Shown here: positions 2,918-17,059 of the stretch, piece by piece
Numbering within the stretch: position 1 is the first letter of the stretch
Layout: each line of letters starts with the position of its first letter
NCBI GenBank assembly: GCA_934488695.1
Contig: CAKSSH010000001.1
Coordinates: 7,476 to 71,475, forward strand
DNA: 64,000 nucleotides
Source: an uncultured Oscillospiraceae bacterium
GTDB taxonomy: Bacteria; Bacillota; Clostridia; Oscillospirales; Ruminococcaceae
Reading direction: 5' to 3'
Program-made: the position numbers and the translations under genes
Notes under the pieces: generated by a model
What the model was told of the DNA's origin: nothing
What the model saw: the letters and a program-made list of their open reading frames with translations, nothing else
Databases searched by the model: none

Positions 2918-4099
2918 TTATCGCCCGAAACGCTCCGGCTCAGGAGCGGAAGAGGATTCCGGAAGAGAAAAATCAACCGAGGAATCGTAATTGGAGGACA
3001 CGGTCTCGGATTCGGCGCCCTTTTGGGACGTAGGCGGAGTCGGCTCTGTCGCTTCACCAGAAAGAGCAGACAGGGAAAATCGCCAAATGCCGCCTTGCAG
3101 AAGCTGTTTTTGCGGCAAATTCGGATACGCGTCCGGTGTGGTAGAGGATAAGTAGAGGAAATCGCCGATACAGCAAATTGAATCCGCGGTGTAATCTGAA
3201 AGCTTAAATAGGTTGCCGGAGCTGAATGGAACGGTATAAATGCCGCCGTCCCGACCACAGAAGTAGGCGTTTGTTTTGCTGACGGTACAGGTCCAAAGAT
3301 TGAGCTGAACGGCAAGGCGGATCGGTTCGTTGGAAAACATTTGCACAATATAAGTGGCGTCGGCGGTGCTGTACAATAATTGACTGCCGACGACCATAAA
3401 TCCGCTCAGGTCGTGCGGAGTTTCACGAATAAGCTGCGTATCGCTTCCGTCCGGATTCATGGAGAAAACAGCGGACCCGGCATTGTAGAAAATACGGCCG
3501 CGAATAATGTAAAATTCATTGACCTCTCGTGCCAAGGCCGTGACCTTTCCGTCTTGCTGACAGTATAAAGTGCTGCGGCCGTAATGTCCCTTATCGGCCA
3601 AGAAAAAATCCTTGTCTTCATAATGCAACAGAGAGGAAATGCTTTTTTGCTCAAATAACGGATCGATTATGGCAGCGGAAAGCGTTTTTTCTTTGAGGTC
3701 AAACACACTGTACCCGGTTGCACCGTCCTCTTTGCGGTAGCCGACGCTGATTTTTTGCGGCATGATATATTGAATCGAAGAAAAGGTATAGGCGTTGTGG
3801 GCGTACACCTTGGAAAGAGCATTTTTTAGAGCTAACTGCTTGTAGATGCCGCCGGAATCGGCGCAATAAAATATATCGCCGTTTTCATCCGCTGAAATAA
3901 AGGTGGGGCGCAGCAGGTCAGCTTCAGCGTCCGCCATTCCCCATCCGGAGGCGTTGTACGGATATGAAAATGTGTTTTCGGTCACCGCAGTTTCGGAGAC
4001 GGCGGTTAATGAAGACGTTGTCAGCACCTCTTTCCGGCAGGAGGAAAGAAGGACGCAGGCAAGCAGCACTATGACCGATAACATATGCTTTTGAAGCAT
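2918..4099 (-). CDS. predicted lipoprotein with beta-propeller-like repeats (DUF5050/TolB-like)
   Basis: Signal peptide with lipobox LLSSC. Recurring motifs IFYCADSGGIY, FFLADKGHYGRSTLY, IFYNAGSAVFSMNPDGSDTQLI and AYFCGRDGGIYTV. RBS AGGAGAG. Confidence 0.6.
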   Translation of the reverse strand: MLQKHMLSVIVLLACVLLSSCRKEVLTTSSLTAVSETAVTENTFSYPYNASGWGMADAEADLLRPTFISADENGDIFYCADSGGIYKQLALKNALSKVYAHNAYTFSSIQYIMPQKISVGYRKEDGATGYSVFDLKEKTLSAAIIDPLFEQKSISSLLHYEDKDFFLADKGHYGRSTLYCQQDGKVTALAREVNEFYIIRGRIFYNAGSAVFSMNPDGSDTQLIRETPHDLSGFMVVGSQLLYSTADATYIVQMFSNEPIRLAVQLNLWTCTVSKTNAYFCGRDGGIYTVPFSSGNLFKLSDYTADSICCIGDFLYLSSTTPDAYPNLPQKQLLQGGIWRFSLSALSGEATEPTPPTSQKGAESETVSSNYDSSVDFSLPESSSAPEPERFGR

Positions 4100-4120
4100 G
4101 AAATCTCTCCTTGTTTGGGG

Positions 4121-4645
4121 TTACAGGGTTTCAGGTGCGGGATAGGCTTGGCCGAAGGTGTCCACAGTGACTTTTTCAATCGCCTGATCCTCGTACGGCT
4201 TGTCCCGGAAATCACGGGCTGCCGATACAATGGTATCAACCGTTTCCATGCCGGCAAGGACTCGCCCAAAAGCGGCGTACTGCCCGTCCAGGTGCGGGGC
4301 GTTCTCCGTCATGATGAAAAACTGAGAGCCGGCACTGTCGGGGTCCATGGAGCGCGCCATGGAAATGACGCCGCGGGTGTGCGCAAGGTTATTGTCAAAC
4401 CCGTTTGCGGAAAATTCACCGGCAATGGCATAGCCGGGCCCGCCGATACCGGTTCCTTGCGGATCGCCGCCTTGAATCATAAAGCCGGGAATGACCCGGT
4501 GAAAAATAAGACCGTCATAAAAATGCTGCTCAACCAGAGAAATAAAATTCCGAACGGTGTTGGGGGCTGTTTCCGGAAAAAGCTCGATTTCAATCGGTGT
4601 CAGTGCACTGTCTTGCATTTTAATATGAACAATAGGGTTTTTCAT
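4121..4645 (-). CDS. ppiB: peptidyl-prolyl cis-trans isomerase, cyclophilin type
   Basis: Motifs FHRVIPGFMIQGGDP and SMARS..PDSAGSQFFI. Start taken at MKNPIVH (4645). Lies 21 nt upstream of the lipoprotein gene on the same strand. Confidence 0.9.
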   Translation of the reverse strand: MKNPIVHIKMQDSALTPIEIELFPETAPNTVRNFISLVEQHFYDGLIFHRVIPGFMIQGGDPQGTGIGGPGYAIAGEFSANGFDNNLAHTRGVISMARSMDPDSAGSQFFIMTENAPHLDGQYAAFGRVLAGMETVDTIVSAARDFRDKPYEDQAIEKVTVDTFGQAYPAPETL

Positions 4646-4766
4646 AAAAAGACACAACCTTCGTTTTATTATTGAAAAAGTATAGCATATTTTTCTAAAA
4701 AAAGCAAGGGGCGCATGCCGCAGTCCATTGCGGAATATATATAGGAAAAAACGGGAGAGGGATAAT

Positions 4767-5354
4767 GTGGGAACTGTGGTACTGGGGATCTGCCTTTTGT
4801 CATTGGCGGCAGCTGCTTTTTTCGGGAATGCGCAGCCGTTGGCTCAGGCAGCGGTCAATGGGGCAGGGGAGGCAGTGCGGTTGGTGCTGTTGTTGACCGG
4901 CGGCCTGTGTTTTTGGGGCGGCGTTATGCGTCTTGCGCAAAAAGCCGGACTGTGCACGCTTTTGTCTAAGCTTCTCTCACCGCTACTTCGCCGGCTGTTT
5001 CCGCTTCTAAAAAAGGGGGACCGAGCCGCCGAGCTTATCAGTATGAATCTTTCGGCCAATTTGTTGGGGCTTGGCAATGCGGCAACCCCGTTTGGACTTG
5101 CCGCCATGCGGGAGCTGCAGAAGCAAAATCCGACGCCGCCTCGTGCCACAGACGCCCAAGTGACCTTTGCGGTGCTTAACAGTGCTTCATTACAGCTTTT
5201 GCCGACGACGCTCTGTGTTTTACGGGCGGCACACGGTTGCAAAAATCCGCTGAATATTTTGCCGGCGGTGCTTTGCACCTCGGCGTTGTCTCTTGCGGTC
5301 GGTCTTTTTGCTGACCGGATGTTTCGTGCCTTGAGCGGGAGGAAAAGGAAATGA
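4767..5354 (+). CDS. spmA: spore maturation protein A (nucleoside recognition domain membrane protein)
   Basis: Multi-TM Gate-domain-like sequence (GGLCFWGGVMRLAQKAGL, NLLGLGNAATPFGL). GTG at 4767 follows GGGAGAGGG. Overlaps spmB (ATGA). Confidence 0.75.
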   Translation: MGTVVLGICLLSLAAAAFFGNAQPLAQAAVNGAGEAVRLVLLLTGGLCFWGGVMRLAQKAGLCTLLSKLLSPLLRRLFPLLKKGDRAAELISMNLSANLLGLGNAATPFGLAAMRELQKQNPTPPRATDAQVTFAVLNSASLQLLPTTLCVLRAAHGCKNPLNILPAVLCTSALSLAVGLFADRMFRALSGRKRK

Positions 5355-5875
5355 ACTGGACGCTGTACCTTTTGCCGGGGATTCTCTGCGCTGTTTTGCT
5401 TTGCGCAAAGCTTCGGCGAGTTGATATTCTTAAAGAATTTTCAATCGGCGCTTCCCAAGGGCTTCAAACTGCTGCCGGGTTGATCCCGACACTGTCTTTA
5501 CTGATGACGGCAGTCGGCATGCTGCGTGCCTCGGGCGCACTGGAGGCGGTAACAGGTTTGCTGGCGCCTGCAGTCTCTCGTCTCGGGATTCGGCAAGAGG
5601 TCTTGCCGCTCATGCTTTTGAAACCGTTTTCCGGATCCGGGTCCTTTGCACTGCTGGAGGACATTTTTACTCATTACGGCGCTGACAGCTTTGTCGGCCG
5701 TGTTGCTTCGGTGATTGCCGGCTCCACCGAAACGACTTTTTATACCGTTGCTGTCTATTTCGGCTCAATCGGTGTCAGCCGTACGCGTCACACCGTTCCG
5801 GCGGCCGTCGCGGCGGACATCACCGGATTTCTGCTCAGCGGCTTTTTTGTCCGCATTTTTCTTCAAAAGGCATAA
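5351..5875 (+). CDS. spmB: spore maturation protein B
   Basis: 174-aa membrane protein translationally coupled to spmA. Motifs LKPFSGSGSFALL and GSTETTFYTVAVYFG are typical of SpmB. Confidence 0.75.
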   Translation: MNWTLYLLPGILCAVLLCAKLRRVDILKEFSIGASQGLQTAAGLIPTLSLLMTAVGMLRASGALEAVTGLLAPAVSRLGIRQEVLPLMLLKPFSGSGSFALLEDIFTHYGADSFVGRVASVIAGSTETTFYTVAVYFGSIGVSRTRHTVPAAVAADITGFLLSGFFVRIFLQKA

Positions 5876-8337: not shown

Positions 8338-8397
8338 GCATGAAATTTCCAAAAGGGTGCAGACTATAAACGAACGGCGGATTTGTACGGGCCGGAA

Positions 8398-8426
8398 TTG
8401 ACAAATTATGATATTAATGGTATAAT
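8398..8426 (+). promoter_or_regulatory. sigma-A type promoter of the envelope gene cluster
   Basis: TTGACA (8398-8403), a 17-nt spacer, then TGgTATAAT (TATAAT at 8421-8426). Consensus hexamers plus an extended -10. Confidence 0.6.
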
Positions 8427-8463
8427 AAAACGGTTAATCGGAAAGGAAACGAGAGGGAGCCTC

Positions 8464-9372
8464 ATGTCGGATAAACGGAGCGTTTTTAATAAAAAAAGCA
8501 AAACTTACGCGGTGCGGCTTAACAGCACCTTGACAGCCTTGTCGGCACTGGCTCTTTTTTTGTCTGTTGCCTTGATTCTGTCTGTGGTATGGCTGTTTTC
8601 CGGCAATGCCTCCGATAAGAATATTATTGCGGTCCGGCCGGATGCGTCGGACTTGGTGTCCTCGGAGAAGGTTGTCTCGACAGACAGCTCCGGAGCGGCT
8701 TCATCTGTTTCTTCCAAAACTGCGGTTTCTTCTAAGCTTCCGCCGGATCCCAATCGGTTTTCAATGCCGCTCGGCGAGTCCGATATGCGCGAAACAGCGT
8801 ATTTTGCCGACGCAGTCTTTGTGGGCGATTCTATTACGACGGGAATTGACCTGTATTCGGCCTTGACCGGCACTAAGGTTATTGCATCCACCGGCATCAA
8901 CCTGGAAACGGTACTGACTGCCAAATCGGTTCGCAATCAGGCCGGCGAAAAAGTAACGATTCCGGAGGCCGTCCGTGCGGCGGCGCCGTCCAAAATCTAT
9001 CTGATGCTGGGAACCAACGGAATCGACTGGATGAGCTTGGATGCGATGATAGAACAGTACGAAAAAGTGCTGGATGTTTTGCAAAAAGATAATCCCAAAG
9101 CAATTTTTTATTTGCAATCTTTGCCGCCGGTCACGCAGGAAAAGGCGAAGAAATCCAGCGGGCTAACGCTTGCTAATATTAAAACCTTTAACAGCCGGCT
9201 TCTGAAGCTTGCTGAGAAAAGAAAAATGTATTTTGTGGATGTATACAGTGCCATTGCCTCCCCGGATGGGTACCTTTCACCTCAGATGAGTACGGATGGT
9301 GTGCATTTCAAATCCGAGCTTTACACAGCATGGATTGAATATGTACGTCGGCATACCTCGAGATACGAATAA
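8464..9372 (+). CDS. membrane-anchored SGNH/GDSL-family hydrolase
   Basis: ATG at 8464 follows GAGGGAG. N-terminal TM (LSALALFLSVALILSVVWLF), Ser-rich linker, then SGNH blocks FVGDSITTG, LMLGTNG and DGVHF. Confidence 0.8.
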   Translation: MSDKRSVFNKKSKTYAVRLNSTLTALSALALFLSVALILSVVWLFSGNASDKNIIAVRPDASDLVSSEKVVSTDSSGAASSVSSKTAVSSKLPPDPNRFSMPLGESDMRETAYFADAVFVGDSITTGIDLYSALTGTKVIASTGINLETVLTAKSVRNQAGEKVTIPEAVRAAAPSKIYLMLGTNGIDWMSLDAMIEQYEKVLDVLQKDNPKAIFYLQSLPPVTQEKAKKSSGLTLANIKTFNSRLLKLAEKRKMYFVDVYSAIASPDGYLSPQMSTDGVHFKSELYTAWIEYVRRHTSRYE

Positions 9373-9386
9373 AGGAGGGCGTTTTT

Positions 9387-9857
9387 ATGAAAAAAACAGC
9401 TTTAATATTGACCTTGATTATGGGACTGCTTGCAGTTTTGTGCTGCGGCTGCGGCAAAAAAGAAGGAAAAACGCCGGACACGGCCGCTGTTGCGGACGCC
9501 ATTGAGAAATCCGGCAGCTTTGATGAGTTGATCGACCTTACCGACGATAACATTGCCCGTCGGTATTACGGGCTGGATTTAGACGCGGTCGACAGCTATA
9601 CGGTGCGGGTTTGTTCCAGCGGTGCGCTGGCGGATGAAATTGCCGTTTTTAAAATGAAAAAGCACCAAGATGTCGAGGATATGCTGGAGGTGCTCAAGGA
9701 GCGCAAGCAAGAGCTGTACGACAGCTTTGTGGATTATGTCCCTACCGAGACCGATAAGATCAACAATGCCATTATCGGGTCGAATGGGAATTATGTTTAT
9801 CTGATTGTTTGCACCGACCGCAGCAGTGCAAAAACCGCGGCGGAAAACTGTTTTTAA
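9387..9857 (+). CDS. DUF4358-type lipoprotein
   Basis: Lipobox VLCCGCG. Sequence resembles the DUF4358 family as I recall it (DDNIARRYYGLD, ADEIAVFKMK). Lies 14 nt after the SGNH gene. Confidence 0.65.
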   Translation: MKKTALILTLIMGLLAVLCCGCGKKEGKTPDTAAVADAIEKSGSFDELIDLTDDNIARRYYGLDLDAVDSYTVRVCSSGALADEIAVFKMKKHQDVEDMLEVLKERKQELYDSFVDYVPTETDKINNAIIGSNGNYVYLIVCTDRSSAKTAAENCF

Positions 9858-9889
9858 AACATAATGAGCATCAAAGAGACGGGAACAAG

Positions 9890-11287
9890 ATGAAAAAAAT
9901 CGTTCGGAATTTCGGTCGGTCGCTTTATTATTTGGATGCGCTTTGTGAGATTGCGTTGATTTCTACTGTTTTTGTTGTGGCGTTGAAAGACTGGTTTTGC
10001 CACGGCAGCGTGCCGATTGATAATCACGCGACCATTGTGCCGATTGTTATTTTCTCAGCGCTTTTTCTGTATATGACCGGCTCCTTTGACGTCACGAAAA
10101 AGCGTGCGCTGGAGCTTATAGTGACAGGTGCAGCGTCAGTGCTGCTCAGTGACCTAGCCGCACTTGTAATTATCAGGACGTATTCGTTTGTATGGTTTAC
10201 GGCGACGGACTTGTTTTTGACTATTCTGCTGCAGCTTGTCGCTGTGGCGGTATGGGCCAGCATTTCGCGGCTGATTTACCGTGCTTTTAAAAAACCGCAG
10301 CGCGCCGTTGTGGTTTGTTATGATTTGGAAAATATCGATAGCTATATCCAAAAAATTCGCGGCTATGCCGATAAGTATAACATTACTGAGATCATCAGTT
10401 ATGAGGACGCAAACCTTTATTATGCCATATGTCAGAGCGAAGCGGTTTTTTTGCTGGATCTTTCAAGCAAAAAGCGGGAAAAGGTGGCACAGTACTGTCT
10501 GGCGCTTAATAAGAATATTTATATACTGCCGGAGCTTTATGAGATTGCCGTTCGCAATTCAAATTTGGTCCAAATTGATGATATTCCGTTCTTTTCCTGC
10601 AAGCCAATGACGCTGACGATGGAAGAAAAACTGATAAAGCGGTTGTTTGACATAGTTTTTTCGCTGATTGCCATTGTGTTGACGTCGCCGGTTATGCTTA
10701 CGATCGCCTGTCTTATCAAACATGATGACGGCGGTAAAGTCTTTTATAAGCAGGATCGAATCACCGAGAATTACAGGCCTTTTAAGGTCTTAAAATTTCG
10801 GACCATGGTGGAAAACGCCGAGCAGCTGAGCGGGGCGACATTGTCTGTAAAAGAGGATCCTCGGGTGACCAAAATCGGCAAAAAATTGCGGGCTGTCCGA
10901 CTTGATGAGCTGCCACAGCTGTTTAATATTCTGATTGGGGATATGAGCTTTGTCGGCCCGCGTCCCGAAAGAGATATTTTTATACAGGAATATGTGAAAA
11001 CGGTCCCTGAGTTTGTATACCGGCTGAATGTTAAGGCCGGCCTGACCGGTCTTGCACAGGTTCGCGGCAAGTATAACACCACTCCGCAGGACAAACTCAA
11101 GATGGATCTTTTGTATATCAATGATTTTTCCTTTTTAAACGACTTAAAAATCTGTTTTTTGACGCTGAAAGTCCTTTTTTCAAAAGAAAGCACCGAGGGA
11201 ATAGACGGAACGGTTCAAAACGAAAAAACCTTTCGGCAGCAAAACGAGCAGTCTGAAAAGAACGGAGCGGAGGAGTCCGGTGAATAA
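9890..11287 (+). CDS. polyprenyl-phosphate glycosyl-1-phosphate transferase (bacterial sugar transferase, WbaP/EpsL-like)
   Basis: ATG at 9890. N-terminal TM bundle plus a Rossmann-like region. C-terminal Bac_transf motifs KVLKFRTM, DELPQLFNILIGDMSFVGPRP and KMDLLYI. Confidence 0.85.
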   Translation: MKKIVRNFGRSLYYLDALCEIALISTVFVVALKDWFCHGSVPIDNHATIVPIVIFSALFLYMTGSFDVTKKRALELIVTGAASVLLSDLAALVIIRTYSFVWFTATDLFLTILLQLVAVAVWASISRLIYRAFKKPQRAVVVCYDLENIDSYIQKIRGYADKYNITEIISYEDANLYYAICQSEAVFLLDLSSKKREKVAQYCLALNKNIYILPELYEIAVRNSNLVQIDDIPFFSCKPMTLTMEEKLIKRLFDIVFSLIAIVLTSPVMLTIACLIKHDDGGKVFYKQDRITENYRPFKVLKFRTMVENAEQLSGATLSVKEDPRVTKIGKKLRAVRLDELPQLFNILIGDMSFVGPRPERDIFIQEYVKTVPEFVYRLNVKAGLTGLAQVRGKYNTTPQDKLKMDLLYINDFSFLNDLKICFLTLKVLFSKESTEGIDGTVQNEKTFRQQNEQSEKNGAEESGE

Positions 11288-12290
11288 GCTGAAATATTTG
11301 GCCGCACGAATTCGCGGAATGGATTTTAAAAATATGATGCGCCAGGCGCGGGTGGTCCGAAAACGGACCGGCCGCCCCTGCTTTATAACGCTTGTTGATA
11401 TGATTTATTGCGGTTTTCGCTACATGGCCGGCTACATGGATTATGTGGTTTTTGAGTTTTATCGGCTCAATCGCGCTCAGCGTAAAACGCAAATTACGCG
11501 CGGCATGAATAATGCGCTGGTTCGTCGGTTTAATGCGCCGGACAGCTTTCATAAATTCGACCGAAAAAACGAGTTCAACGAAATCTTTGCCGACTGTCTG
11601 CATCGGGATTGGCTGGATCTTTCTTCGGCAGATGAGGCCGCATTGCAAGCATTTTGCGGCCGTCACGCCGAAATAATTGTCAAGCCCTGTGACGGAGCCT
11701 GCGGGAAAGGGATAGAAAAGCTGAAGATCTCGGATTTTTCGGACCCGGAAAGCTTGCGGCAACACTGTCTGCAGACGGGGCAGACGGTTGCCGAGCAAAT
11801 TATTGTGCAGCACTCAAAGCTCAATGAGTTGTTTGCGGGGTGCGTTAATACGGTGCGTATGGTCACAATTACACATAACGGAAAAGTGCATGTTGTTTTT
11901 TGCGCTATCCGCATCGGCGCCGGAAACACCCTGGTGGATAATTTAAACAGCGGAGGGATGGCGGCATTAGTGGACGTGGATACCGGCTGTATCAAGACCG
12001 ACGCTGCAGATAAAAACGGTGTTGTGTACCAAAAACATCCGGACACCGGGACTGTTATTCAAGGCTTTGAAATCCCGTTCTTTCGAGAGGGGCGCGCAAT
12101 GGTTGAACAGGCTGCGCTTCGAGTGCCGGAGATAGCCTATGTCGGCTGGGATATTGCGTTCCAGCAGGACGGGCCGTTGCTTATTGAGGGGAATCATTTC
12201 CCGGGGCATGATATTTACGGTATGCCGGCTCTTACGCCGGACGGTTACGGCTTTTGGCCGCAGTTTCAGGCGGCAATTGCCGAGGATTGA
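11280..12290 (+). CDS. sugar-transfer associated ATP-grasp family protein (predicted amidoligase)
   Basis: The GTG start overlaps the transferase stop by 8 nt. The N-terminus (FITLVDMIYCGFRYMAGYMDYVVFEFY...RKTQITRG) and ATP-grasp core (IVKPCDGACGKGIEK, LIEGNHFPG) fit the ATPgrasp_ST family. Confidence 0.7.
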   Translation: MNKLKYLAARIRGMDFKNMMRQARVVRKRTGRPCFITLVDMIYCGFRYMAGYMDYVVFEFYRLNRAQRKTQITRGMNNALVRRFNAPDSFHKFDRKNEFNEIFADCLHRDWLDLSSADEAALQAFCGRHAEIIVKPCDGACGKGIEKLKISDFSDPESLRQHCLQTGQTVAEQIIVQHSKLNELFAGCVNTVRMVTITHNGKVHVVFCAIRIGAGNTLVDNLNSGGMAALVDVDTGCIKTDAADKNGVVYQKHPDTGTVIQGFEIPFFREGRAMVEQAALRVPEIAYVGWDIAFQQDGPLLIEGNHFPGHDIYGMPALTPDGYGFWPQFQAAIAED

Positions 12291-12315
12291 TATTTCGGAC
12301 GGTTTGTAGTATAAT
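12287..12315 (+). promoter_or_regulatory. candidate internal sigma-A promoter in front of the PASTA pseudokinase gene
   Basis: TTGATA (12287-12292, overlapping the ATP-grasp stop), a 17-nt spacer, then TATAAT (12310-12315). Confidence 0.5.
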
Positions 12316-12358
12316 TTAGGTGCAAAAAACGGTTTCAGAGAACAGGAGTGAGCAATAC

Positions 12359-14041
12359 ATGAATCCGGAAAATCTTTGTATGGGATGCATGCGTGAAAAA
12401 GGAGAAGGCGTTGTTAAATGCCTGCGTTGCGGTTATGTGGACGGTTCTCCCTATTTGCCTGCTTATTTGGCGCCGCGCACCGTACTGCAGGAGCGGTATC
12501 TTGTCGGAAAGGTACTCTCCTATAACGGCTGCGGTGCAACTTATATTGCCTATGACGCAATCATGAATTGCAAGGTCAAAATCCGGGAATATATGCCGGA
12601 AAATCTGGCCTCTCGCGAAAAGGGCAGTCCGGCAGTCCGGGTCAACACCGGCAGTGAGATTCAATATAAATCCCTGAAAATGGATTTCTTGGAGCTTTCG
12701 CAGCGTTTGATGAAGCTGGGAACGCTTACAGAAGTGGAACATGTGCTGGGCGTTTTTGAGGCGAATAATACCGCATATGCAGTATTAGAGTTTGTTGAAG
12801 GGATGACCTTGACAGAGTTTTTGAAGAAGAACGGCGGGTATTTGTCTTGGGAGGACACACGGCAGCTGTTTATGCCGCTGCTTTCCTGCCTGAATGCAAT
12901 ACATAATTGCGAATTGCTGCACCGCGGCATCAGCCCGGAGACGATTTTGGTCGACCGAAGCGGCAATCTTAAGCTGACTTCTTTTGATATTGCCCCTGCT
13001 CGGACGGCTCGCAGTGAGTTGGTAGCACAGCTTTATGCCGGTTATGCGGCGCCTGAGCAATACACCTCCAGCGCATGGCAGGATACCTATACGGATGTTT
13101 ATGCTATTGCCGCAACTATTTATCGTACCCTGACCGGTACAATGCCGGTGGAAACACTTTCCCGGGTCGCAAATGACAATTTGGTTTCGGCCAGCACGTT
13201 GAATCAAAGTATTCCTAAAAATGTTTCCAATGCGTTGACGGCGGCTATGCAGTTGTCGCCCGAAAAGCGCACGCAAACGGTCGGAGAGCTGATTGCGGAG
13301 CTGTCTCAGGTGATGGACTTCGGTGATGGCTCGGAGAATCCGCAGGCGGAAGCACCTGTGGTGAAAGAAAAAGAAAAAGACAAGAAAAACGGCGCACGAT
13401 ATGCTGCGATTTCGGTCGCGATCAGCGCACCGGTGTTGATTTTGATCATCGTTGTTTTAATGTTGACTCTTTTTCCGCGAAAAAAACCGAGTAATGTTTC
13501 CAGTAAAGGGCTTTCTTCGATTTCGGTTAGCTCGGAAAGCTCGTCGTCCGAGACCTCTTCCAAGACGCGATTTTTGTATGCAGTCCCGTCTTTTGTGAGC
13601 CGGAATGTCGATGCTATTATTAATGACACGGATTATACTGAAAAATACAAATTTAAAACAGTATATGACTATAACGAGGAGTACGCGGAGGGAACTGTTG
13701 TTGAGCAGTCGGTCGAGGCCGGTACGCCGGTTGAAAGCAACGGAACCGAAATCACGCTGACCGTCAGCCGCGGCTCTAAATGGCGGGTGTTGCCGGATTT
13801 GGTCGGTAGAAATGTCGACTATGCTAAGGACACCCTCAATGATAAATTTATCCGTTATGAGGTCGAGACGCTGACAGGGACCTACGGGGATCCGCAGGTG
13901 GTTGCGAAAATGAGCAAGGAAGAAGGAACGCGCCTTGATATTTCACAGGGACAGACTGTGATTTTATATGTTTATGAAGCGCTTCCGTCGTCGTCCTCCA
14001 GCTCAAAGCCCGATACTGATTGGGTAAACGACCTGCAATAA
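12359..14041 (+). CDS. zinc-ribbon / protein-kinase-like / PASTA-domain membrane protein with degenerate catalytic motifs (predicted pseudokinase)
   Basis: ATG at 12359 follows AGGAG. N-terminal CxxC-x11-CxxC. Kinase fold with HRGISPETIL in place of HRDxKPxN and SFD in place of DFG, while APE is kept. One TM (ISVAISAPVLILIIVVLMLTLF), a Ser-rich linker and two PASTA-like repeats. Confidence 0.8.
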   Translation: MNPENLCMGCMREKGEGVVKCLRCGYVDGSPYLPAYLAPRTVLQERYLVGKVLSYNGCGATYIAYDAIMNCKVKIREYMPENLASREKGSPAVRVNTGSEIQYKSLKMDFLELSQRLMKLGTLTEVEHVLGVFEANNTAYAVLEFVEGMTLTEFLKKNGGYLSWEDTRQLFMPLLSCLNAIHNCELLHRGISPETILVDRSGNLKLTSFDIAPARTARSELVAQLYAGYAAPEQYTSSAWQDTYTDVYAIAATIYRTLTGTMPVETLSRVANDNLVSASTLNQSIPKNVSNALTAAMQLSPEKRTQTVGELIAELSQVMDFGDGSENPQAEAPVVKEKEKDKKNGARYAAISVAISAPVLILIIVVLMLTLFPRKKPSNVSSKGLSSISVSSESSSSETSSKTRFLYAVPSFVSRNVDAIINDTDYTEKYKFKTVYDYNEEYAEGTVVEQSVEAGTPVESNGTEITLTVSRGSKWRVLPDLVGRNVDYAKDTLNDKFIRYEVETLTGTYGDPQVVAKMSKEEGTRLDISQGQTVILYVYEALPSSSSSSKPDTDWVNDLQ

Positions 14042-14059: not shown

Positions 14060-14094
14060 ATGCCGCCGGCGCCTTGACGCCGGCGGCATTTTTT
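14060..14094 (+). terminator. intrinsic terminator ending the envelope cluster
   Basis: Perfect 12-bp stem ATGCCGCCGGCG / CGCCGGCGGCAT with a 6-nt loop, followed by TTTTTT. Confidence 0.75.
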
Positions 14095-14110
14095 GAAAAG
14101 GAGGGGGACA

Positions 14111-14848
14111 ATGCAGCACTATAATTATGAAGAAATTGAACGGTGCAGCATGGAAATACAAAAAGACCTGATAGCCCTTTCAGATGCTGGATACCGGGAG
14201 TTTCAGGCAAGGCTGATCCCGACAGTTGATAAAGAAAAAATTCTCGGCGTCCGGATACCGCAATTGCGCCGATACGCAAAAACGCTTTCCTCGGAGCAGA
14301 CGGAGCTTTTTTTGAGTGTGCTGCCGCATAATTATTATGAAGAAAATTGCCTGCATGGTCTGTTGATAGAACAAATTTACGATTTTGACGCCTGTGTTGT
14401 CGCGCTGCGGCGATTTTTGCCATACGTGGATAATTGGGCAACTTGTGATATCATCTCTCCTCGGATTTTTGCTCAAAATAAAGCGGCGTTGTTGCCGGTG
14501 ATGAAAGCGGGGCTTACCGAAAAATCGGTTTATGCGGTGCGTTTTTGGCTTCGGATGTTAATGATTTATTTTTTAAAGGATGATTTTCAGGCGAGTTTTT
14601 TCGACTGGGTAGCTGCGGTGCGGCGTGGAGATTATTATTTGTATATGATGGTTGCATGGTATTTTGCAACGGCACTTGCTTATCAGCCGGAAAGTGCCTT
14701 TGCTTTTTTATCTACCGACCAATTAGATGCCCGGACACGTCGCAAGGCAATTCAAAAGGCGTTGGAAAGCAATCGGGTGTCCTTGGAGATGAAAGAAAAG
14801 CTTCGTGCGCTGCGCGCACAAATCGGCTTGTGCGCACAGGAAGAATGA
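14111..14848 (+). CDS. DNA alkylation repair protein (AlkD-like HEAT-repeat family)
   Basis: ATG at 14111 follows AAGGAGGGGG. Motifs YREFQARLIPT, LGVRIPQLRRYAK and VDNWATCD are typical of the DNA_alkylation family. Confidence 0.7.
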   Translation: MQHYNYEEIERCSMEIQKDLIALSDAGYREFQARLIPTVDKEKILGVRIPQLRRYAKTLSSEQTELFLSVLPHNYYEENCLHGLLIEQIYDFDACVVALRRFLPYVDNWATCDIISPRIFAQNKAALLPVMKAGLTEKSVYAVRFWLRMLMIYFLKDDFQASFFDWVAAVRRGDYYLYMMVAWYFATALAYQPESAFAFLSTDQLDARTRRKAIQKALESNRVSLEMKEKLRALRAQIGLCAQEE

Positions 14849-15055
14849 TAACGTTGTATAAGCTAAATTGCCTCTGCCGGTTGGACACAGAAGGGATATA
14901 AGATTGCACGCAAACCTAACTTAAAAAACACGCAGAAAAAGGGTTTAAAGGCAACCCGCAATGAAAATTTCGCAAGCAAAAACAGCGTGTTTTGTACATA
15001 TATAAAGCTTATGGCGATTGCTTGTGCGAAAAATGGTATGGCAGCGTATAAAAAT

Positions 15056-15089
15056 AAAAGCCCCGGCGCGTGAATCGCGCCGGGGTTTT
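15056..15089. terminator. bidirectional intrinsic terminator
   Basis: Perfect 10-bp GC stem CCCCGGCGCG / CGCGCCGGGG with loop TGAAT, flanked by AAAAG on the 5' side and TTTT on the 3' side. Sits between convergent genes. Confidence 0.7.
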
Positions 15090-15096
15090 CGGCCAT

Positions 15097-15933
15097 TTAG
15101 GCTTCCCGGTAAAAAAACAGGGCACAGCGAAACAGAAAAACAGACAAAGTCAAATCAACAAAATGCATAAACACATCTGAGCCGCCGACGCTTTCAGATC
15201 CGCAAACAAAGCAAAAAATGGCCGGTATTGACAAAACAAAGCCCAGCACAATGGTGATGGGTGTAACGATATGAAAGAGACGCAGCCCTTTTTTTCGGTC
15301 GACGTCGGAAAAAACACGCGCCGCAGACAAAATGCTAATCAGCAGCATACAAAGATAAAGAATGTCGAGCAGATTTTTTGAAATATAAAACAGAGTGGTA
15401 AAGCTGACAAAATCACGCAGGATACGAAAAATAACCCACGCAGCTATTACGAGGCAAAGGCCTGACTGACCGATATGCTGATTTTCAATCAAAAAAGAGA
15501 GCATTAAAAAGAAAATCAAGCTGGCTGCCGAAAGCAGAGTTGTCATAACAGCAAAAAGAGTTATGTTTGCGTTAGGGTTGTCGGTGGGCATGGGGTTTGC
15601 AAGCCGAAAGATTTCATAAAAAGTGTTGACGGCAAAGCCGACAGTCATCATTGCAAACAAGGGACGCTGGTTTGCAAGCGGAGCGAAATCATAATTAAGA
15701 TTTACCGGAAGCACTGCGCGACGCTTCAAAACAAACTGCCAGCAAACGCCGAATAATAAAGCCGCTGCCAGCAGAATCAAAAGCAGCACCCGGTCGGCTG
15801 CGCTGCGGCTTTTGTAAAAACCGGTGGATGGGTCTATATTTGCATAAAGGGTTAGAGTCCGCAGGGAAATTGCCAGTAGAGAAATTATAGAAACAGTTAA
15901 AAAATAGCTTTTTTTGCAAAGCAGGTTTTTCAA
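15097..15933 (-). CDS. hypothetical polytopic membrane protein
   Basis: 278 aa with about 8 hydrophobic segments. TTG start follows AGGAG. I recognise no family. Coding call rests on ORF length, RBS and terminator. Confidence 0.5.
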   Translation of the reverse strand: MKNLLCKKSYFLTVSIISLLAISLRTLTLYANIDPSTGFYKSRSAADRVLLLILLAAALLFGVCWQFVLKRRAVLPVNLNYDFAPLANQRPLFAMMTVGFAVNTFYEIFRLANPMPTDNPNANITLFAVMTTLLSAASLIFFLMLSFLIENQHIGQSGLCLVIAAWVIFRILRDFVSFTTLFYISKNLLDILYLCMLLISILSAARVFSDVDRKKGLRLFHIVTPITIVLGFVLSIPAIFCFVCGSESVGGSDVFMHFVDLTLSVFLFRCALFFYREA

Positions 15934-16138
15934 GATGACATCTCCTAAATAAGTGAATAAATTTCAAAAAAGGGAACCAAAAAGCTTGCGTGGCAGGTCT
16001 TTTCGGAATTCATCTGGCATACATTAAAAAAAGACAGCTTGTCTGTCAGGACTTAAAATATACTATGGTTATTTTAAAACAAAACGGCGGTAAAGTCAAG
16101 AGCGAATACTGCCGAATCCGTGCGAAGGAAGAGGTTTT

Positions 16139-17059
16139 ATGAAGGCAATGCTGCAAAAAAGTCTAACAATACTGCTGCTCATTACCCTTCTGCCGCTAAC
16201 AGCCTTTGTGTTCCAATCAAATAACAAAAATGGACGCCGTTTCAAAATCTATGATAAGACTTGGCAAAAAACACTGCAGCTGTCGGCCAAGGAGTATGTG
16301 CTTGGAGCATTATGCTGTGAAATGCCGCCAACCTTTCATTCGCAAGCATTGATTGCACAGGCGGTGGCAATCTACACAAATGCGTTACGAAGCCAAAGCG
16401 CCGGCGAGGATATTGTGACAACGGCAGAGAGCGGGAAATATATCGGTTACGCTGCACCGGAACAATTTCAAGATCGGTGGGGAAAACGGTATACGCAGTA
16501 TCGACAAAAGATGTGTAATGCGGTTGAACAAGCACTTTATAAGGTCATTACCTATGACGGGAAACCGATTTTAGCGGCATATCATGCCATGTCCGGCGGT
16601 AAAACAGAGGCGGCGGAAAATGTTTGGGGCCAGGCGGTGCCGTATCTTACGGCGGTTGAAAGTGAAGGGGATTTGTTTTGCAGTCAGTATGAAACAATCG
16701 TTACGCTGCCGACACAAAAAGCACGAGAAATGCTGACAAGCGCTTATGAAAATATTAAGCTGCCCGAGAATGATGCACAGTTGCTGACGCAGATTGAAAC
16801 CTCTCCGTCCGGCACTGTGCTACAGGTGATGGCGGGAAACACCAAAATTCGAGGGCAACAGCTACGGACGCTTTTTTCGCTGCGAAGTGCAGTCTTTACC
16901 GTGTCTGTTTCCGACGGGAAATTGACTTTTACGGTGCACGGCTACGGACATGGGGTTGGTCTCAGTCAATATGGCGCGGATTTTATGGCGCGGCAAGGGG
17001 CCGATTATCGTGCGATACTTGCGCATTATTATTCCGGGACAGAATTAATGCAGTCTTAA
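16139..17059 (+). CDS. spoIID: stage II sporulation protein D (SpoIID/LytB domain)
   Basis: Motifs AQAVAIYTNA, AYHAMSGGKTEAAENVWG and GHGVGLSQYGADFMARQG, plus an N-terminal signal/TM segment. Confidence 0.85.
   Translation: MKAMLQKSLTILLLITLLPLTAFVFQSNNKNGRRFKIYDKTWQKTLQLSAKEYVLGALCCEMPPTFHSQALIAQAVAIYTNALRSQSAGEDIVTTAESGKYIGYAAPEQFQDRWGKRYTQYRQKMCNAVEQALYKVITYDGKPILAAYHAMSGGKTEAAENVWGQAVPYLTAVESEGDLFCSQYETIVTLPTQKAREMLTSAYENIKLPENDAQLLTQIETSPSGTVLQVMAGNTKIRGQQLRTLFSLRSAVFTVSVSDGKLTFTVHGYGHGVGLSQYGADFMARQGADYRAILAHYYSGTELMQS

Follow-up and report, generated by a model that had tools for sequence, protein, structure and literature searches.

We examined the gene at positions 12359-14041 of a 64,000-nucleotide stretch of DNA (the window, by which we mean the whole of that stretch) from contig CAKSSH010000001.1 of an uncultured Oscillospiraceae bacterium. 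A first-pass annotation had singled out this gene for a kinase-like product with replaced catalytic residues and PASTA repeats. PASTA kinases are the main eukaryote-like sensors of the cell wall in Gram-positive bacteria, and they have been studied both as drug targets and as determinants of tolerance to beta-lactams. Bacterial pseudokinases, to our knowledge, have barely been explored by experiment. The analysis presented here assigns the window protein to a family of bacterial pseudokinases with a PASTA sensor, a family that is real, under strong selection and apparently not yet described.

Gene and domain architecture at 12359-14041

The open reading frame (ORF) runs on the forward strand, as do all features described in this section and the next, from an ATG at 12359 to a TAA stop codon at 14039-14041, and the coding sequence (12359..14041, stop codon included) specifies a protein of 560 residues. 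The N-termini of the homologs, which follow the pattern MNxxNLCMGC, agree with this start and not with an upstream GTG at 12320, which had indeed been judged an unlikely initiation codon. A Shine-Dalgarno motif read from the sequence (AGGAG, 12344..12348) lies 10 nt 5' of the ATG. Further upstream, the sigma-70-like promoter TTGATA-17-TATAAT (12287..12315) that the first-pass annotation had pointed out matches 11 of 12 consensus positions and was the best match of the region in a consensus scan; it overlaps the stop codon of the preceding ATP-grasp gene. Downstream, a strong intrinsic terminator is formed by a 12-bp GC-rich stem and the T-tract that follows it (14060..14099). With a predicted promoter and a terminator of its own, the pseudokinase gene looks monocistronic.

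The product combines, in this order, a four-Cys ribbon, a Hanks-type kinase fold, one transmembrane helix, a Ser-rich linker and two PASTA domains. The AlphaFold2 prediction, for which 66 homologs were used (mean pLDDT 82), is confident over the N-terminal ribbon and the kinase fold, and renders the PASTA part as two alpha/beta units. The CxxC ribbon already noticed ahead of the kinase domain (12377..12430; pLDDT ~80-86) is cytoplasmic and has the spacing C7-x2-C10-x10-C21-x2-C24, that is, CxxC-x10-CxxC. In our main set of 117 full-length homologs, which share 35-72% identity with the window protein, these Cys residues are kept in every sequence that has no gap at the position (107-116 of 117 sequences). 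The Pfam search of the 560-residue protein returned no match to this segment, a putative zinc ribbon with two conserved CxxC knuckles.

The kinase-like domain spans residues ~40-318 (12476..13312) and is recognized by the Pfam Pkinase profile PF00069 (E 1.6e-19; 70.8 bits against a cut-off of 31.7), over profile positions 59-251 only. Foldseek searches with the predicted fold retrieved Pseudomonas aeruginosa PpkA (PDB 5hnv) as the nearest structure, followed by PknB and Stk1; the target-normalised TM-scores range from 0.80 to 0.83 among the three, PpkA reaching 0.83. The single transmembrane helix, at about residues 347-372 (13397..13474), is supported by both the modelled helix 345-371 and a hydrophobic segment in the translation. 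A Lys-rich cytoplasmic stretch precedes it, giving an N-in, C-out topology. The helix leads into a low-complexity, Ser-rich extracellular linker (13475..13573), which the model shows as a disordered stalk (pLDDT <50 at residues 378-404); the one membrane span and the linker read earlier from the translation recur in the model. Likewise, the two PASTA-like repeats correspond to two stretches matched by Pfam PF03793 (13574..13981; E 3.8e-17; 62.4 bits against a cut-off of 23.2), which we assign as extracellular PASTA domains. The family profile also picks up the PASTA part of PrkC proteins from related genomes, at ~86-90 bits.

Catalytic positions and their conservation among homologs

To map the catalytic residues, we combined phmmer alignments against solved kinases (4eqm and 5hnv) with a MAFFT alignment against the canonical PrkC encoded by the same genome. 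In the catalytic loop, HRGISPETIL (12920..12949) aligns column-for-column with Staphylococcus aureus Stk1 (4eqm; HRDIKPQNIL) and the PrkC of the same genome (HRDIKPQNIM), as had been proposed, which puts Gly190 at the place of the HRD Asp and Thr195 at that of the Asn. The first-pass annotation had counted the Asp, Lys and Asn of this loop together as lost and as signs of inactivation. This holds for Asp and Asn but not for Lys, since active-looking relatives (HRDISPDN) and PpkA (HRDISLDN) also have Ser at that position; judged from these sequences, the Ser is ancestral and is no evidence of decay. In both types of alignment SFD (12980..12988) falls on DFG, with the Mg-binding Asp replaced by Ser208, again as first read. 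On the other hand, the beta3 Lys that had been thought to persist in the CKVKIREY context does not: VAVK/VAIK aligns with VKIR, so that Arg76 (12584..12586) holds the Lys position and the Lys of VKI occupies that of the Ala in VAIK. The G-loop is degraded as well, with SYNGCG in place of GIGGMA (GxGGxA) and its first two Gly gone. The alphaC Glu, also reported as kept, is borne out only in part: the residue is acidic (Glu or Asp) in 112 of the 117 homologs, but it stands one column off the canonical Glu in the sequence alignments. Retained are the APE motif (within YAAPEQ), in agreement with the earlier reading, the alphaF Asp (D246) and the alphaH-I Arg (R304). Of the residues by which the catalytic competence of a Hanks kinase is judged, four are thus absent from the window protein: beta3 Lys, HRD Asp, loop Asn and DFG Asp.

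These replacements are features of a family. The position of the HRD Asp is Gly in 116 of the 117 homologs, the lone exception being an aberrant, chimeric-looking entry, and His188, Arg189, Phe209, Arg215, APE, D246 and R304 show little or no variation. The DFG-Asp position varies freely (Gly in 55, Ser in 22, Asp in 22 and Ala in 14 sequences, with Cys also found), the position of the catalytic-loop Asn is Thr in 93 and Asn in 24, and at that of the beta3 Lys 80 sequences have Arg and 36 have Lys. No member of this set combines Lys, Asn and DFG Asp. Every Asp or Glu at DFG+2 is accompanied by the beta3 Arg (39/39), but all 39 sequences belong to one clade, and the association is therefore not independent evidence. 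A second branch, which takes in cultured Ruthenibacterium lactatiformans, Fournierella/Allofournierella massiliensis and Gemmiger, has HRG in 108 of 112 sequences and GYA or GFA for DFG, and keeps the beta3 Lys in 110 of the 112. Database names of the family are generic ('PASTA domain-containing protein', 'protein kinase'). On HRG/GYA proteins of F./A. massiliensis (P0192, P0204 and P0228) UniRef has the name 'non-specific serine/threonine protein kinase', which is unlikely to be correct.

Elsewhere in the protein, the ribbon and the linker motif PYLPSYLAP are near-invariant. The activation segment RTARSEL...GYAAPE (13001..13057) is conserved too, with R215 present throughout, T216 in 95 and S/T219 in 111 of the 117 homologs. 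Constraint is strong on the ribbon and N-lobe insert and likewise on the activation segment, P+1/APE region and C-lobe, and weaker on the ectodomain: invariant columns fall mostly within residues 7-304, with only Q450 and L493 invariant outside the cell. The alignments demonstrate that purifying selection acts strongly outside the lost catalytic positions, the activation segment, APE motif and C-lobe included. Because the replaced residues are themselves fixed and the gene is intact and near-universal in its GTDB family, we regard the protein as selected and not decaying; the expectation of a selected pseudokinase, which the first-pass annotation had set against recent decay, is borne out by Gly at the HRD Asp in both branches.

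Descent, distribution and genomic context

The kinase-like domain had been taken for a homolog of PrkC/PknB-type kinases, a descent that our comparisons contradict. Over residues 2-330, the family profile scores 250-320 bits on long ORFs (600-1400 residues) of many Clostridia, in which CxxC...CxxC and (A/V)(I/V)KEY(M/L/F)P with a post-beta3 insert accompany intact HRDISPDN and DFGA motifs, whereas PrkC reaches only ~100-120 bits against the same profile. In a maximum-likelihood tree, all PASTA pseudokinases form one clade (100/100) apart from both the zinc-ribbon kinases and PrkC, and this clade takes in divergent HAG, HRL and HRG-IDEST variants of other GTDB families. On the profile scores and the tree, we rejected a degraded duplicate of PrkC as the origin of the gene. 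The domain is best seen, from these sequence relationships, as a zinc-ribbon 'KEYxP' kinase that lost catalysis once, long ago, and was joined to PrkC-like PASTA domains.

With the zinc-ribbon kinases of Clostridia (AIKEYxP-HRDISPDN-DFGA), the window protein shares the same four-Cys ribbon, an (R/K)EY(M/F)P motif, the post-beta3 insert and the Ser in the catalytic loop. The kinase domain of PpkA, its best match at 83.7 bits, is a solved relative of this group. Unlike the pseudokinases, these active-looking kinases keep Lys, HRD, Asn, DFG and a GxGGFG loop, have variable non-PASTA ectodomains and often occur as multiple copies in tandem arrays; the pseudokinases are single-copy and form their separate clade. 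In related Oscillospirales, for instance, three arrays (L084:1193-10000, L085:1906-7628 and L086:601-10501) hold two to five tandem active-looking zinc-ribbon kinases (CxxC..CxxC, AIKEYxP, HRDISPDN, DFGA) with long, variable ectodomains (400-1400 residues in total). The last gene of the L086 array (8960-10501) is a degenerate copy with HGNIRPEN and LNYGG, a degeneration independent of that of the PASTA pseudokinases. An anti-phage kinase was also considered, given matches to NCBIfam MADS6, BREX PglW and lanthionine synthetase, and was rejected: the scores lie far below the cut-offs (e.g. 106 against 460) and so reflect the shared kinase fold only.

With PrkC, PknB, Stk1 and StkP (the 'KAPD' family of the 2025 bacterial kinome atlas, which treats it as canonical), the window protein has in common a cytoplasmic Hanks fold, one transmembrane helix, homologous extracellular PASTA domains and a Gram-positive host. 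It differs from PrkC in that the beta3 Lys, HRD Asp, Asn and DFG Asp are missing, in the N-terminal four-Cys ribbon and the ~18-residue post-beta3 insert, both absent from PrkC, and in the other lineage of its kinase domain. It also has two PASTA domains, where the PrkC of this genome has three and an additional C-terminal domain, and its gene is not linked to a PP2C gene. The NCBIfam equivalog model for Stk1/PknB/PrkC (NF033483) scores 157 bits on it, far below the cut-off of 450.

Relatives were found in at least 581 species genomes by a pattern scan with one genome per species. An order-level scan returned a full-length match for each of the 19 genomes that represented the window's GTDB family and for every genome sampled from two sister families (f13 and f26), and a scan of the family with one genome per genus (61 genera) returned matches, most of them full-length and of 300-800 bits, in 44 of 44 high-quality genomes. 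Outside the order, no full-length match turned up among 300 Clostridia genomes. The family occurs as a single-copy gene in Ruminococcus-like genera, Ruthenibacterium, Fournierella, Gemmiger and Huintestinicola. Nearly all genomes of the window's family also have PrkC-like ORFs of 640-800 residues. Among the individual records, OY725877.1 (126661-136208; ORF 3986-5701), labelled 'Subdoligranulum variabile plasmid 43', holds a family member 94-100% identical to R. lactatiformans proteins; the record is almost unannotated and its organism or replicon label looks doubtful. Since this chromosomal-looking record is the sole near-full-length match in a plasmid collection, we rejected a plasmid location for the family. 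Two metagenome bins titled 'Prevotella sp.' and 'Escherichia coli' (L018 and L067) also contain this clostridial gene (~36-39% identity to the window protein), probably on mis-binned contigs.

The genome of the window measures 1.57 Mb and is 94% complete. The canonical PASTA kinase that the first-pass annotation had suggested looking for elsewhere in it lies on contig 35, in a classic rlmN-PP2C-PrkC locus, and has HRDIKPQN, DFG and three PASTA domains; besides the pseudokinase, it is the sole Pkinase match above the cut-off. A weak third Pkinase-like match (19.6 bits, below the cut-off) falls at 7301-7543 of contig 54, in an ORF of 263 residues.

Immediately upstream of the pseudokinase gene, four co-directional genes (8383-12290) encode a GDSL/SGNH hydrolase, a DUF4358 lipoprotein, a Bac_transf polyprenyl-phosphate sugar transferase and a 'sugar-transfer associated' ATP-grasp protein. 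We surveyed the neighbors by calling ORFs in 80 related loci and clustering all of them. The four-gene block is syntenic with the pseudokinase only in the seven closest loci (65-73% identity), and an envelope module that includes the pseudokinase was rejected as a family-wide unit on these grounds. A conserved operon partner was rejected as well, for the commonest neighbor occurs in only 17 of the 80 loci, and the frequent-neighbor candidates IspD, PheA, PfkA, an amino-acid ABC transporter and Spo0A are unrelated housekeeping genes. Genes for Spo0A and SpoIID lie near the pseudokinase gene in some loci. In the window, the downstream region (14093-17059) contains an AlkD-like DNA alkylation repair gene, an unannotated multi-pass membrane protein (15097-15933, reverse strand) and a SpoIID homolog (16139-17059), the latter two syntenic in the closest relatives only.

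Known pseudokinases and possible roles of the family

A full-text literature search returned no description of a PASTA pseudokinase; the supplementary tables of the survey by Kwon et al. 2019 may list such proteins. The earlier impression that bacterial PASTA pseudokinases are essentially undescribed thus fits their absence from this search and from the 2025 atlas and review. Seven bacterial pseudokinase families have been catalogued, namely ActPs1-3, GLW, CP1, DYD and DLHK, which are actinobacterial, proteobacterial or cyanobacterial except for DYD (PMC12599244; bioRxiv 10.1101/2025.01.12.632604). Motif comparison against the text of these papers found none that fits the window protein, as none has PASTA, a zinc ribbon or HRG. 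The window protein lacks the GLW motif and the activation-loop deletion of ActPs3, it is membrane-bound whereas CP1 is cytosolic and associated with COG3899, and it has neither the HRD nor the DFG motif, one or both of which DYD and DLHK keep. DYD proteins, from Firmicutes and Actinobacteria, are membrane-associated and ATP-binding, with the beta3 Lys replaced by Arg and a proposed salt bridge between this Arg and an Asp at DFG-Asp +2 (PMC12599244). R76 and the SFD motif (D210) give the window protein a likeness to them; however, DYD keeps HRD, its first Asp and the catalytic-loop Asn and is devoid of the alphaC Glu, whereas in the window family the motif reads HRG, the first Asp is gone and ribbon and PASTA domains are present besides.

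Two further membrane pseudokinases, which the atlas and review also treat, offer functional parallels. The pseudokinase domain of Mycobacterium tuberculosis MviN (MurJ; ActPs3), in which all catalytic motifs are degraded, is connected with peptidoglycan synthesis and is regulated through its phosphorylation by PknB (PMC12599244). As a membrane-associated pseudokinase under the control of a PASTA kinase, MviN is the best functional analogy for a scaffold linked to PrkC, yet it is actinobacterial, is fused to a flippase, has an activation-loop deletion and neither PASTA nor zinc ribbon, and its read-out needs FhaA. EssB/YukC, a single-pass membrane pseudokinase of the type VIIb secretion system of Firmicutes, has a structural, non-catalytic role; it differs in its secretion-system operon and its other ectodomain, no sequence match links it to the window protein, and the window has no type VII secretion context.

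Weighing these data, we consider it very probable that the window protein is a selected, non-catalytic pseudokinase, as its replaced residues suggest. We further put a probability of about 0.6 on its being a non-catalytic membrane receptor or scaffold that senses peptidoglycan, shared by a conserved Oscillospirales family. This reading gives support to the role first proposed for it, in signaling or scaffolding and not as an enzyme. In such a receptor, the ribbon and the kinase-fold domain would lie inside the cell, and the transmembrane helix and Ser-rich stalk would hold the two PASTA domains outside, where, by analogy, they may bind a peptidoglycan-derived ligand or place the receptor at sites of wall synthesis. 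One ancestral event would have changed HRD into HRG, fixed ever since, removed the Mg-binding Asp and joined the domain to PrkC-like PASTA. The dead kinase domain would signal through protein-protein contact. The likeliest partner of this contact would be PrkC, which we favor because it is the sole canonical Hanks kinase found in the genome; the pseudokinase may serve it as allosteric partner, substrate or both, with T216 and S/T219 of the activation loop as candidate phospho-sites. This partnership we propose tentatively, rating it somewhat below even odds. A stricter version, in which the protein is an obligate co-receptor of PrkC and the dead receptor senses peptidoglycan and switches PrkC allosterically by heterodimerization, in the manner of the HER2/HER3 pair, appears unlikely to us.

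Several points weigh against this interpretation. The lack of phosphate transfer is something that we infer from the sequence, and PASTA ligand binding is assumed by analogy. The beta3 Lys persists in 36 of the 117 homologs and in 110 of the 112 sequences of the second branch, and among the 117 the Asn is retained in 24 and the DFG Asp in 22; it is thus possible that some members of the family bind nucleotides. Kinases without canonical motifs can be active, WNK being an example, and Escherichia coli YegI is likewise cited as active despite non-canonical motifs (PMC9674922). As to PrkC, nothing ties the pseudokinase to it physically or genetically: the gene is never found within the PrkC operon, nor does any neighbor recur in more than 17 of the 80 loci. 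Finally, no match to the FHA domain (PF00498) was found in the 94%-complete genome, and a read-out of the MviN-FhaA type is ruled out for want of such a reader.

An alternative is a sensor or scaffold that works independently of PrkC, in which PASTA would read the state of the wall and the ribbon and dead kinase domain would recruit or regulate a partner other than a kinase, such as a divisome, elongasome, envelope-polymer or sporulation protein, in a structural role like that of EssB/YukC. Such a scaffold would accord with the other lineage of the kinase-like domain, the near-invariant ribbon and PYLPSYLAP, the position of the gene outside the PrkC operon and, in the closest relatives, behind the SGNH-DUF4358-sugar transferase-ATP-grasp envelope module, as well as with the spo0A and spoIID genes nearby in some loci. 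However, the envelope synteny is limited to those seven loci with no other conserved neighbor, no candidate partner has been identified, and the conserved activation-loop Thr/Ser and P+1 region resemble a kinase-kinase or kinase-substrate interface, all of which leaves this alternative doubtful.

That the protein is an atypical active kinase or another nucleotide-dependent enzyme, using Asp210, Glu194 (in HRGISPET) and Arg76, we regard as improbable. The surroundings of the active site are indeed conserved and not scrambled (HRG, F209 and an acidic residue 194), many members keep the beta3 Lys, and the pairing of the beta3 Arg with an Asp or Glu at DFG+2 (39/39) is reminiscent of the salt bridge between Arg and Asp proposed for DYD (PMC12599244). 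Yet that pairing comes from a single clade and is phylogenetically non-independent, and Glu/Asp194 is shared with the active paralogs and hence is no compensating change. Moreover, the catalytic base is Gly in ~99% of members, the DFG-Asp position drifts among Gly, Ser, Asp, Ala and Cys, the Asn is mostly Thr, the G-loop is missing its first two Gly, and Lys, Asn and DFG Asp never occur together. Far less probable still is a decoy or competitor that titrates PASTA ligands or fills the septal sites of PrkC with no signaling role for its cytoplasmic part: homology of its PASTA pair to the PrkC repeats (~86-90 bits to the profile) would suit it, but conservation is highest in the cytoplasmic ribbon and kinase-like domain, in contrast with an ectodomain invariant at two residues only. 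Recent decay of a kinase gene into a pseudogene, which the several missing catalytic residues might have suggested, is refuted by the ortholog survey, with the ORF intact in hundreds of species of at least three GTDB families the replaced residues fixed, and identities of 35-70% retained along the full length.

The window protein thus represents a large, conserved, single-copy family that unites a PASTA sensor with a dead kinase domain and is found almost universally in at least one large Oscillospirales family of the GTDB. Database names that denote an enzyme, such as the one in UniRef for some of its members, are corrected by this assignment. The family provides a natural system for the non-catalytic roles of PASTA receptors and for possible receptor pairs of kinase and pseudokinase in bacteria. 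If the co-receptor reading holds true, wall signaling in a major clade of gut Clostridia would rely on an undescribed non-catalytic partner.

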